Origin: an uncultured Alphaproteobacteria bacterium | GTDB lineage: Bacteria; Pseudomonadota; Alphaproteobacteria; HIMB59; GCA-002718135 | Length of the DNA stretch: 64,000 bases | Direction of reading: 5' to 3' | Assembly (NCBI GenBank): GCA_902586695.1 | Contig: CACIIL010000001.1 | Span: 22,196 to 86,195, forward strand | In this document: one piece after another, positions 60,606 to 64,000 of the stretch | How the letters are laid out: every line of letters starts with the position of its first letter | Numbering within the stretch: position 1 is the first letter of the stretch | Program-made: the position numbers and the translations under genes | The notes under the pieces: model-generated | Databases searched by the model: none | Told to the model about the DNA's origin: nothing | Seen by the model: the letters and a program-made list of their open reading frames with translations, nothing else

Positions 60606-60704
60606 CTATTTTAGTTTTTTTAATTTTAGATAAGAGAAAATTAATAGTAAAAAAACTAAAAAGAATGTTGCAAAATAACTAGTAAACACAAACCAAAAAT
60701 ACAT
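60606..60704 (-). CDS. ccmD: Heme exporter protein CcmD (small ORF, not in the supplied ORF track)
   Basis: My hand translation gives MYFWFVFTSYFATFFLVFLLLIFSYLKLKKLK*: one TM helix plus a basic tail. It sits exactly between ccmC and ccmE and stops 5 nt before the ccmE start. Confidence 0.55.
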   Translation of the reverse strand: MYFWFVFTSYFATFFLVFLLLIFSYLKLKKLK

Positions 60705-62138: not shown

Positions 62139-62747
62139 TTATTTAAAATTAATTATTTCGAGGTTAGTAATAATTGGTTCAAAATGAGATGCAAAAAGAA
62201 TTATTCCATTTTTTTTTATATGGTCAACAAAAGTTTGATTTAAAATTTCAATAGACCCTTCGTCCAGATGATTGTATGGTTCATCTAAAATCCATATTTT
62301 TTTTTGTTCAATAATTAATCTAAGTAATTCTAATTTTTTTACTTCTCCAGATGACAAATACATAACTTGGGTATGTATATATTTTTCTAATTTAAAAGCT
62401 TGAAGTAATAATAAAACTTCATTGTCAGTTATTGTAGAATCTGAAAATCCCTTCCAAAAATTAATATTATTAATTAATGTTAAACTTTTAGTAGAGCTAG
62501 GCTCATCCATTATTAAAGTTATTTCTTTGTAAAAATTAAATATATTTTTCTTTATATTTTTACCTTCCCAAAATACCTCACCATTTTCAGGTAATAAAAT
62601 ATTTAAAATGGTTTTAAGAAAAGTAGTTTTGCCTGATCCATTTTTTCCTTTAATTTGTTTTATTTGTCCTCTACCAATTGATAAACTTATATCATTAAAG
62701 ATATTAACTTTATTTCTTGAAAACGATAAATTATTTGCGAGAAGCAT
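62139..62747 (-). CDS. ccmA: Heme exporter ATP-binding protein CcmA
   Basis: Walker A GKNGSGKTT, signature LSSGEVKK and Walker B ILDEP. Confidence 0.9.
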   Translation of the reverse strand: MLLANNLSFSRNKVNIFNDISLSIGRGQIKQIKGKNGSGKTTFLKTILNILLPENGEVFWEGKNIKKNIFNFYKEITLIMDEPSSTKSLTLINNINFWKGFSDSTITDNEVLLLLQAFKLEKYIHTQVMYLSSGEVKKLELLRLIIEQKKIWILDEPYNHLDEGSIEILNQTFVDHIKKNGIILFASHFEPIITNLEIINFK

Positions 62748-62790
62748 TTTTACTGATTACGAGTATTTTGTATTTTTCTCAATAAAAAAA

Positions 62791-62806
62791 ACGGGGATAA
62801 CCCCGT
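62791..62806 (-). terminator. Rho-independent terminator between the Lys/Ala-rich gene and ccmA
   Basis: ACGGGG-ATAA-CCCCGT flanked by an A-run on one side and a T-run on the other. On the minus strand the stem is followed by TTTTTTTTATT. Confidence 0.75.
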
Positions 62807-62876
62807 TTTTGAAGTTTTTAGAAAAATTAAGAAAAAGAAAAAAAAAGTATTTTTTCTTGTTCTAAAAGAAAATATT

Positions 62877-63101
62877 CTATCTTCTTCTTTTAGCAGCCTT
62901 TTTCTTTTTCTTAGCAGCCTTTTTCTTTTTCTTAGGTGCTGCTCTTTTTTTCTTCTTAGGAGCAGCTCTTTTCTTTTTCTTAGGTGCCGCTCTTTTTTTC
63001 TTTTTAGGAGCAGCTCTTTTCTTTTTCTTAGGTGCTGCTTTTTTTCTCTTAGGAGCAGCTTTTCTTCTTTTAGCTGCTGCTTTCTTTTTCTTCTTTGCCA
63101 T
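62877..63101 (-). CDS. Lys/Ala/Pro-repeat, histone H1-like basic protein (74 aa)
   Basis: The ORF is composed only of M, A, K, R and P, with AAPKKKKR x4 plus variants. AAGGAG lies 6 nt upstream of the ATG and a dedicated terminator lies downstream. It resembles AlgP/Hc1-type bacterial H1-like proteins. Confidence 0.65.
   Translation of the reverse strand: MAKKKKKAAAKRRKAAPKRKKAAPKKKKRAAPKKKKRAAPKKKKRAAPKKKKRAAPKKKKKAAKKKKKAAKRRR
62931..63060. repeat. Tandem 24-bp coding repeat organised as a 48-bp higher-order unit (about 2.7 copies)
   Basis: 62931-62978 and 62979-63026 are 46/48 identical. Adjacent 24-bp units are 20/24 identical, differ only at synonymous sites, and encode the same KKKRAAPK. 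Confidence 0.85.
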
Positions 63102-63447
63102 TTAATGCTCCTTGTATTGGGTTAAAGTGGAGGAACCCCCCTCCATCATCACTTAAAATAAGTGACAAACATAAAAGGCTTTCTTTTTTTCCCAAAACTT
63201 ACGCTTAAAGTCAACAATTTACGAAAACTTTGAAATGTTATATTTTTATTTTTTAAATTAATAAAAAATTTAATTTAAGCTCAGTCTATTTTTGGCAGAA
63301 ATCTAATTAAAATTTAACAAAATAACTATACAAATTTTTTTTGAGTATTATTAGTTAAAAACTTAATTCTAAATTTTAATACTAAATAGGATTACAAAAA
63401 TAAGGTTAGTTAACAAAAAGTAATTATAAGTAAAATAAAAAATAGCT

Positions 63448-64000
63448 ATGAAATCTCTAAACTCTTTCAATACATGTAAAATTATACAAATTGATGAAAA
63501 AAAATATCAATATTATGATTTAAATATATTGGCAAAGATTTTTGATTTTGAATTATCAAAAGTCCCTAATTCAATTAAAATACTTTTAGAAAACCTTATT
63601 AGGAATGAAGACGGTGAGTCAGTAACCAAAGATATGATTTCAAATTTATGTCTAAAGATTAATCAAACTTTAGATAATTATGAAATTGCATTTACACCAA
63701 CCCGGGTTCTAATGCAGGACTTTACTGGGGTTCCAGCAGTAGCGGATTTGGCAGCAATGAGGAATGCTTTGAAAAAAAAAGGAATTGATCCAAATAAAAT
63801 CAACCCTCTTTCAAGAGTTGATTTGATCATAGATCATTCTGTTATGGTTGATCATTTTGGAGATGAGGAAGCATATAAAAAAAATGTAAAGAAAGAATTT
63901 GATCGGAATAAAGAAAGATATGAGTTTTTAAAATGGGGACAGCAAACATTCGATAATTTTTATTTAGCACCACCTGGGGGTGGTATTTGCCATCAAGTAA
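63448..64000 (+). CDS. acnA: Aconitate hydratase A, 5' portion (continues beyond the window; not in the ORF track)
   Basis: My translation from ATG 63448 gives MKSLNSFNT...LENLIRNEDG...FTPTRVLMQDFTGVPAVADLAAMR...IDHSVMVD...ERYEFLKWGQQ.F.NF...PPGGGICHQV. These are hallmark AcnA N-terminal blocks. Confidence 0.95.
   Translation, partial: MKSLNSFNTCKIIQIDEKKYQYYDLNILAKIFDFELSKVPNSIKILLENLIRNEDGESVTKDMISNLCLKINQTLDNYEIAFTPTRVLMQDFTGVPAVADLAAMRNALKKKGIDPNKINPLSRVDLIIDHSVMVDHFGDEEAYKKNVKKEFDRNKERYEFLKWGQQTFDNFYLAPPGGGICHQV

Follow-up and report, generated by a model that had tools for sequence, protein, structure and literature searches.

A conserved SAR11 gene encoding a lysine-rich repeat polycation, its near-invariant 5′ leader and its possible role as a tail-only, H1-like nucleic acid-binding protein

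The 64-kb stretch of DNA analysed here (the window; 27.4% guanine plus cytosine, GC) is, judged from its gene content and closest relatives, derived from a member of the Pelagibacterales (SAR11), the closest named relative by CcmA being ‘Pelagibacterales bacterium SAG-MED31’. Between the divergent acnA (plus strand) and ccm (minus strand) genes lies an open reading frame (ORF) for a protein of 74 amino acids consisting, after its initiator methionine, of lysine, alanine, arginine and proline only. Comparison with related loci indicates that this ORF is almost certainly a real, selected, protein-coding gene. The fuller account, according to which it is a monocistronic SAR11 gene whose product behaves like a histone H1 tail or a protamine on the AT-rich chromosome, and whose synthesis is gated by its leader, is put forward with the balance of belief standing about even.

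The ORF and its translation (MAKKKKKAAAKRRKAAPKRKKAAPKKKKRAAPKKKKRAAPKKKKRAAPKKKKRAAPKKKKKAAKKKKKAAKRRR), as given in an earlier sequence-only reading, were reproduced exactly. The protein comprises 37 K, 10 R, 20 A, 6 P and 1 M, has a mass of 8.46 kDa and a net charge of +47, and is 64% basic, or five basic residues in every eight. It is laid out as an N-terminus MAKKKKKAA, five AAPKKKK[R/K] units and a C-terminus AAKRRR. The unit of the array is 24 nt in length, which becomes 48 nt at the DNA level through the alternation of GCT GCT CCT and GCA GCA CCT codon versions. Given the lack of hydrophobic, aromatic, acidic or polar residues a folded core is impossible, and the product must, on its composition, be a flexible polycation without a hydrophobic core.

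The length of the ORF was dropped as evidence for coding, as four of the six frames are free of stop codons across the A/G-rich tract in all 48 relatives, and length alone thus provides no evidence beyond chance. Six SAR11 genomes, single-cell or metagenome-assembled, were retrieved by means of CcmA (62-70% identity), and each has the ORF in this position; a metagenome scan with the degenerate N-terminus (ATGGCNAARAARAARAARAARGCNGC) yielded approximately 50 further AT-rich marine loci with K/A/R/P-only ORFs. Where flanking sequence was available in these loci, the ORF was always located between acnA and ccmA-ccmB, including in lineages with only 48-51% CcmA identity. The 48 distinct coding sequences (CDS) encode proteins of 45-88 amino acids, are all in frame (48/48) and, aside from two serine and two threonine residues in total, specify only K, A, R and P. 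The copy number of the array differs among the relatives with length changes that are always multiples of three, the N- and C-termini are conserved and the spacing from the Shine-Dalgarno (SD) sequence to the ATG is fixed. Among CDS pairs of the same length, substitutions at codon positions 1, 2 and 3 number 55, 51 and 280, respectively, and the codon differences comprise 252 synonymous changes, 26 exchanges between K and R and 41 others. The identical 74-residue protein of the window is encoded by seven different DNA sequences, with at most nine site differences, all synonymous; loci L002 and L032 differ at 13 sites, all of them third positions, and their proteins are identical; and strains with only 89-91% CcmA identity still have the window protein in unaltered form. 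On these comparisons, selection is maintaining both the amino acid sequence and the reading frame through changes in repeat number.

The sequence-only reading had considered the ORF a genuine, independently expressed gene, and had proposed examining strain conservation and repeat number, with frame disruption or conservation in another frame or strand counting against it. The gene is kept in all SAR11-like loci recovered, at 45-88 residues and in frame; no frame is disrupted among the 48 relatives; the variation falls at the third positions of the ORF's own frame; and no antisense ORF of at least 30 amino acids spans the tract in the window. Together with its own strong SD, its own conserved terminator and its conserved leader, the selection at the protein level agrees with that description.

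The choice of lysine codons further distinguishes the ORF. AAG makes up 17 of its 37 lysine codons (46%), compared to 11% in the 57 other window genes, where 89% are AAA (binomial p = 1e-7), and 48% of the lysine codons across the 48-CDS family. The longest A-run in the ORF is 7 nt, whereas 5000 simulations with the codon usage of the genome gave 15.5 on average and in no case fewer than 10. When the order of AAA and AAG alone was randomised, with each CDS keeping its own counts of both, the mean longest A-run was 12.1 for the window CDS, where none of 1000 shuffles came down to the observed 7, and rose from 6.7 to 11.3 in the family (P<0.05 in 87% of the members). As the shuffled and simulated CDS have longer A-runs, the G's of the lysine codons are placed so as to interrupt poly(A). 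Ribosome sliding and polymerase slippage occur on A-tracts, and the pattern fits selection against either process in an expressed CDS.

The ORF is preceded by the SD sequence AAGGAG, at the site named in the sequence-only reading and inside the block TACAAGGAG, which, like the ATG, varies little or not at all among the 32 distinct leaders. In the leader alignment, numbered by the window row, no change is seen at C102-G108, and at least 90% of the rows retain T100/A101. A 6-mer SD is found in only three of the 57 window genes, and only nine have as much as a 4-mer SD core no more than 20 nt from the start. Given this rarity the AAGGAG of the ORF is exceptional for the genome, in which SD-independent initiation seems, from the window, to be the rule. 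The invariant initiation region reads AUACAAGGA (AUACAAGGAGCAUU at 63103-63116 of the window); we take it to resemble the CsrA SELEX (systematic evolution of ligands by exponential enrichment) consensus RUACARGGA, which is noted as a lead only. In the subtype B loci (e.g. L025 and L030), as well as in L023, the initiation region is found in the loop of a 6-7 bp hairpin, AAAAUAC-AAGGA-GUAUUUU.

Approximately 125 nt 5′ of the ATG hardly vary among genomes in which the proteins of the neighbouring genes are 30-50% different, and the GC content of this leader is 35%, versus 16% in the remaining intergenic sequence, which has diverged. The sequence-only reading had overlooked both this leader and the conserved 3′ end of the transcript. 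TAAATT-GTTGACTTT (63221-63207) forms the start of the conserved block and holds -10-like and -35-like hexamers. The structure of the leader was analysed by RNAalifold and explicit pair counts on the 32 distinct leaders, pairing falling from 92% to 27-48% in slid controls. In the P2 hairpin (UUUGUCACU...AGUGAUGA), 97.6% of the cells are paired and three of the eight pairs show compensatory changes (e.g. CAC/GUG to CGC/GCG in L122); none of 500 shuffles reached the observed level of covariation. The P3 hairpin is 99.5% paired and unique in the window, and its sequence is almost invariant with one-sided G-U changes only, the stem in L139 being longer by one G-C pair. The pairs of P0, a possible hairpin at the 5′ end, are invariant, so that this structure is neither supported nor refuted. 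Several further candidates were set aside. P1 (UUGGG/CCCAA) is only 78.8% paired with a different register in subtype B, and is thus weak and unproven; pairing of AGCC with the GGUU of the P3 loop (a pseudoknot) or with GGC(A/U) at the start codon is likewise unproven, as both are invariant; and a small upstream ORF in the leader and an overlapping 41-residue ORF with a TTG start show no conservation of a coding kind, their few substitutions being non-synonymous and the AUG missing in subtype B.

A covariance model of the leader (R1), which also covers the first four codons, scores 156.5 bits at 63090-63215 of the window and 94-156 bits on the other full-length leaders. Exactly one copy is present per SAR11 locus, always directly upstream of the ORF, and the next best score in the 64-kb window is 20 bits, with no further copy there or in unrelated loci. 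No family reached the gathering threshold when the leader was compared with Rfam 15 (only a tRNA elsewhere in the window did so), and a permissive Rfam search gave nothing meaningful over 63102-63215. The sub-threshold matches (L20_leader, Ref84 and others) lie on the terminator or in the 3′ untranslated region (UTR) and were discarded as generic hairpin-plus-U matches. Meyer et al. 2009 described RNA motifs in Pelagibacter, but the leader is not one of them, and none lies at the acnA/ccmA intergenic region (PMC2704228). As such, it appears to be undescribed in Rfam or the searchable literature.

The separate terminator named in the sequence-only reading (core 62791-62806) was likewise found, as the hairpin AAAAACGGGGTTATCCCCGTTTTT, 10 bp with a GC core, and its T-run (62787-62810); the stem is kept in all subtypes and the loop varies. 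The ccmA gene starts approximately 40 nt past this terminator, behind a conserved TTATTG...TAATC block. Since the terminator precedes ccmA, and ccmA has its own conserved promoter-like block, the small gene constitutes a unit separate from ccmA. Its 3′ UTR contains the pyrimidine 14-mer UUUUCUUUUUCUUA, which is retained in the 3′ UTRs of 41/46 relatives and is the perfect antisense of four UAAGAAAAAGAAAA sites in the CDS (62900-62913, 62921-62934, 62969-62982 and 63017-63030). The window holds one minus-strand copy of the 14-mer and four plus-strand copies, the latter inside the CDS, and most relatives have at least one CDS site that matches the 14-mer of the 3′ UTR. This complementarity could reflect intramolecular pairing of the mRNA, or could be a by-product of the AAG-AAA-AAG-AAA codon pattern. 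Long-range pairing between the 5′ and 3′ UTRs, predicted in the full-transcript fold of the window, was rejected, as the 5′ purine tract of subtype B differs with the 3′ element unchanged.

Table 1. Positions in the window of the small gene, its regulatory features and the flanking genes.
Feature	Position	Strand	Remarks
CDS of the 74-residue K/A/R/P-only protein	62877-63101	-	ATG start; TAG stop at 62877-62879
Tandem array within the CDS	62899-63095	-	Tandem Repeats Finder: period 48, 4.2 copies, 85% matches
SD AAGGAG	63108-63113	-	6 nt before ATG; inside block TACAAGGAG
5′ leader	63102-63215	-	~114 nt from GTTGAC to ATG (conserved block ~125 nt)
P3 hairpin UGGAGG-GGGGUU-CCUCCA	63128-63145	-	SD-like GGAGG paired with anti-SD-like CCUCC
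P2 hairpin UUUGUCACU...AGUGAUGA	63146-63168	-	8-bp stem; loop variable in length and sequence
P0, possible 5′-terminal hairpin GACUU/AAGUU	63196-63212	-	7-nt loop with 3 variable bases; pairs invariant
-35-like TTGACT	63209-63214	-	
-10-like TAAATT	63216-63221	-	
3′-UTR pyrimidine 14-mer UUUUCUUUUUCUUA	62828-62841	-	3′ arm of a hairpin spanning ~62828-62860
Intrinsic terminator	62779-62810	-	Stem ACGGGG/CCCCGU, loop UUAU, then U8 run; 66 nt after the stop codon
acnA (aconitase), start	63448-64000	+	Divergent; continues past the window edge; flanking context only
ccmA	62139-62747	-	Pfam ABC_tran; flanking context, outside the small-gene unit
ccmB, ccmC, ccmD-like ORF, ccmE, ccmF		-	Downstream of ccmA; Pfam CcmB, CcmC, CcmE, CcmF

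The 74-residue protein matched no Pfam family at E<=10 and had no match in NCBIfam, PHROGs, PADLOC or the PDB sequences. A search of 5.8 billion protein clusters returned 8000 word candidates, none of which scored, and the exact sequence is absent from a collection of 15 billion proteins. No ribosomal-protein family or chain of a solved ribosome was matched in NCBIfam, Pfam or the PDB sequences, with the same bias-filter caveat as for the other profile and homology searches: their negatives are weak regarding analogy, because composition-bias correction suppresses low-complexity matches. No paper on the protein was found in the SAR11/Pelagibacter literature searched, the sole ‘histone-like’ match being a row of a metaproteome table. 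A phage origin was rejected, as no such ORF or leader is present in IMG/VR, where two matches to the leader core on contigs of 58% GC are attributed to chance.

The sequence-only reading had proposed a histone H1-like nucleoid protein. The likeness stands at the level of composition, which resembles that of the H1, AlgP and Hc2 tails; family membership does not, as there is no H1 globular domain, no Hc1 or AlgP N-terminal domain and no match in Pfam or NCBIfam, including PF00538 (which we take to be linker histone H1/H5), PF07432 and PF07382 (presumably chlamydial Hc1 and Hc2, respectively). Lacking their folded domains, the protein is not a member of the H1, Hc1, AlgP or PhaF families. By analogy, it may work like the tails of these proteins. 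As in the H1 C-terminal tail, which is rich in K, A and P, disordered and highly basic, with short (S/T/A)PKK-like units that favour AT-rich DNA, the composition and the five AAPKKKK units agree with the (S/T)PKK-like basic tails of H1/H5, a resemblance that is compositional only, common ancestry not being assessable for such low-complexity sequence. In contrast to H1, the SAR11 protein lacks the winged-helix globular domain (the Pfam scan was empty) and any hydrophobic residue, has a higher charge density (64% K+R) and a strictly periodic 8-residue unit, AAPKKKK[KR], and is encoded by a bacterial gene with a dedicated structured leader. The H1 of kinetoplastids is ‘tail-only’, without a globular domain, and similar in size to the SAR11 protein; together with the protamines, it is the nearest analogue in size and charge density. 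Protamines are also small, unfolded proteins with a charge of approximately 0.6 per residue that condense DNA in bulk by electrostatics, but are Arg-based and eukaryotic, whereas the SAR11 protein is Lys-based (37 K versus 10 R) and bacterial.

Among bacterial proteins, AlgP and PhaF share tandem repeats of Lys, Pro and Ala that form a disordered, polycationic region. In AlgP, the KPAA-repeat tail, with the composition of an H1 tail, binds DNA and polyphosphate (polyP) granules and is required for the spacing of the granules (PMC9239181), and in PhaF the disordered KPAA-repeat region binds mRNAs upstream of the SD and activates their translation (PMC12818456). Their repeats are, however, joined to a folded N-terminal domain in much larger proteins (the AlgP tail alone has 154 residues), whereas the SAR11 protein consists of repeats throughout, and its unit, AAPKKKK[KR], has eight residues with four to five consecutive basic ones and is not KPAA. 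The chlamydial proteins Hc1 and Hc2 (hctA/hctB) are also bacterial, lysine-rich, H1-like condensers of DNA. The length of Hc2, which binds DNA, differs between strains through repeat number (PMC2848022), as does that of the SAR11 protein (45-88 residues). Neither Pfam model was matched (a weak negative for Hc2), and the Hc proteins have other residues and a conserved N-terminal part; furthermore, they act in the course of a developmental cycle, while no developmental condensation is known from the free-living SAR11. Synthesis of Hc1, which is toxic, is controlled post-transcriptionally by the small RNA IhtA, in which we see a parallel to the SAR11 leader. The leader in turn resembles those of autoregulated ribosomal-protein genes and other cis-regulatory 5′ UTR RNAs, being a long, conserved, apparently structured 5′ UTR unique to a single gene for a small, basic, nucleic acid-binding protein, with the SD region embedded in conserved sequence, but differs in that it has no Rfam match and that one helix alone has covariation support. 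Bacterial H1-like K/A/P proteins are already known; the stand-alone, tail-only, SAR11-wide version, its leader and the 3′-UTR element antisense to the CDS appear to be undescribed in Rfam, Pfam, NCBIfam and the searchable literature.

From its composition, the product is certain, in the chemical sense, to bind nucleic acid electrostatically. By analogy, DNA, in the form of the AT-rich chromosome in a cell poor in ribosomes, comes first among the candidate main targets, with a likelihood that is at best even. The protein would act like a stand-alone histone H1 tail or a lysine protamine that binds polyanions electrostatically, with the AAPKKKK units, which resemble the minor groove-binding S/TPKK motif, contacting the very AT-rich chromosome, and the neutralisation of charge would serve to compact the nucleoid of a very small cell or to organise it. 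Too much of such a protein would do harm, on which account its synthesis is expected to be gated post-transcriptionally, and the elaborate, gene-specific leader likewise points to control after transcription. This gating would involve P2, the invariant P3, the conserved junctions and the invariant initiation region, and possibly also the 3′-UTR element antisense to the CDS. The control could be autoregulatory, with the protein acting on its own leader in the manner of ribosomal proteins, or could respond to a cellular signal.

A number of points weigh against this account. A pure polycation binds RNA, ribosomes and polyP as readily as DNA, and KPAA-type disordered regions can act on mRNA and not on DNA, as in PhaF (PMC12818456). 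SAR11 already has HU (hupA in Table 1 of PMC2704228), and an extra nucleoid protein is thus not obviously needed. Most of the leader pairs are invariant, so that real covariation support exists for P2 alone, no consensus sigma-70 promoter was called at the conserved block of the leader, and autoregulation is pure inference.

A broader interpretation of the leader considers it a new class of cis-regulatory RNA, either an autoregulatory site for the polycation or a sensor of counter-ions (Mg2+ or polyamines), which would gate a ‘polyamine-like’ polycation serving as a major nucleic acid counter-ion of SAR11, the mRNA being silenced or stabilised by itself through the antisense element in its 3′ UTR. 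We regard this as possible, though on the whole unlikely. Much the same standing is given to a polycation directed at RNA or the ribosome, a strong rival to the DNA account that the sequence-only reading had also mentioned. The protein would bind rRNA or mRNA, either as a stabilising or ribosome-associated factor or to modulate translation as PhaF does, with the leader as its own binding site. The binding of PhaF to mRNAs upstream of the SD, with activation of translation (PMC12818456), provides a precedent for it. The layout is also typical of autoregulated ribosomal-protein genes, with a strong SD and a long, conserved, structured leader at this gene only; the GGAGG/CCUCC helix of the leader resembles an SD:anti-SD pairing; and, as most SAR11 genes in the window lack an SD, initiation may use accessory factors. 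The protein, however, shows no likeness to ribosomal-protein families or solved ribosome chains, variation of the repeats between 45 and 88 residues would be out of the ordinary in a protein with a fixed place on the ribosome, and no ribosomal-protein leader of Rfam was matched, the sole L20_leader match being sub-threshold and on the terminator.

It is improbable that the protein is associated with polyP in the manner of the AlgP tail, organising or tethering polyP or another non-nucleic-acid polyanion during starvation. Polycations bind polyP strongly. In AlgP, the K/P/A tail is located at polyP granules, the spacing of which depends on it (PMC9239181), but the SAR11 locus offers no link to polyP metabolism, its neighbours being acnA and the ccm genes, and the additional N-terminal domain of AlgP is absent from the SAR11 protein. 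Less credible still is a leader peptide or attenuator, in which a functionless Lys-rich peptide would sense lysyl-tRNA or stalling and control read-through into ccm. Lysine-rich stretches can stall or slide ribosomes, and ccmA is the next gene downstream on the strand of the ORF, past the terminator that separates them. However, purifying selection acts on 45-88 codons, which a sensor peptide does not need, and the codon choice minimises sliding on poly(A) instead of exploiting it. The stop codon lies 66 nt upstream of the terminator, beyond the influence of the ribosome, no conserved alternative to the terminator stem was seen, and ccmA is found behind its own conserved promoter-like block past the terminator. 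A non-coding RNA or DNA-level element, to whose A/G-rich repeat the ORF would be incidental, has the least to recommend it: all relatives have four stop-free frames out of six over the tract, the UTRs surpass most coding sequence in conservation and the exact protein is absent from the 15-billion-protein collection, but the third-position and synonymous bias is specific to the frame of the ORF, the ATG-SD spacing is fixed, the termini are conserved with indels only in multiples of three, G occupies third positions of lysine codons, and the antisense strand of the tract holds no ORF of at least 30 residues in the window. Between them, the pattern of selection, codon design and terminator geometry nearly exclude the attenuator and non-coding roles.

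Additional conserved elements can be observed around the small gene. In the acnA-proximal part of the intergenic region, which has a GC content of 16%, two blocks are kept among the closest relatives at approximately 63290-63312 (TTTTAATTAGA(A/T)TTCTGC(G/C)AAAAA) and 63325-63353 (TAATAATACT..AAAAAAA.TTTGTATA), and may be promoter or operator elements of acnA. The inverted motif TAGAA/TTCT(G) in the first block presumably recalls iron-responsive operators. Between the terminator and ccmA, the conserved block at 62748-62786 reads TTATTG...N17...TAATC(A/T), with its -10-like hexamer only about 8 nt 5′ of the ccmA ATG, which suggests a separate promoter for ccmA and a 5′ UTR that is very short or lacking altogether. 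Further downstream, a hydrophobic ORF of 32 residues between ccmC and ccmE (60606-60704, minus strand) has the size and position expected of ccmD, and is ordinary.

Approximately half of the metagenome contigs with the gene end inside the leader or the repeats, and the ten contigs recovered with the exact protein all break off at a distance of 18-61 nt 5′ of the ATG. Contigs end in the leader at loci L011-L020, L024, L033, L037, L041, L052, L056, L061, L104 and L114, and in the CDS at L029, L038, L042, L044, L060, L064, L066 and L095. These assembly breaks are likely caused by the near-identical leaders of co-occurring strains and by the tandem-repeat CDS, and the gene can therefore be expected to be truncated or missing in many metagenome-assembled genomes. 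Detection by proteomics faces a similar obstacle. Trypsin would destroy the protein, as the sequence-only reading had recognised, but the Glu-C or Asp-N digestion that it recommended instead would be of no use, since the protein has no D or E and neither enzyme would cut it.

Further polybasic ORFs were observed during the scan. An ORF of 20 residues, MAKKKKKAAKK[VA]AKKKKGHG, occurs on contigs of high GC (62-74%), many of them freshwater; its SD (AAGGAGCC) is strong, and a GC-rich segment upstream of the ORF is conserved. It is carried by loci L026, L027, L034 (e.g. on the reverse strand at offset 6719), L035, L045, L051, L069, L073, L075, L076, L081, L083, L086, L091, L096, L103, L106, L107, L115, L118, L130 and L135. 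It has no NCBIfam match, its context is unrelated to that of the SAR11 gene, and it may represent another unannotated polybasic micro-ORF. Additional small ORFs that start with MAKKKKKAAKK and consist almost entirely of K, A and T/G/R are found on unrelated contigs of intermediate GC, namely L070 (47% GC, 50 residues) and L099 (50% GC, 76 residues), as well as in L132 (26% GC, 33 residues), L097, L119 and L071, one example being MAKKKKKAAKKKAKKKAGKKKATKKK...AHG. Stand-alone polybasic micro-ORFs may, on this evidence, be more widespread than annotated.

SAR11 is the most abundant marine heterotrophic bacterium, with a minimal genome and very few regulators, and for this reason every conserved SAR11 gene of unknown function is notable. 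The gene described here is among the best-conserved small units of its locus at the level of the protein, the 5′ UTR and the 3′ UTR, and is systematically missed by standard methods, through low-complexity filtering, its absence from the protein collection, assembly and trypsin digestion. Should its product indeed be an abundant counter-ion of the chromosome or the ribosome, it would bear on how a 1.3-Mb genome of 27-30% GC is packed into a few hundredths of a cubic micrometre, on the nitrogen economy of oligotrophs, a polymer of Lys and Arg being costly in nitrogen, and on post-transcriptional control in an organism that is thought to rely on RNA-based regulation. The leader represents a testable candidate for a new regulatory RNA.

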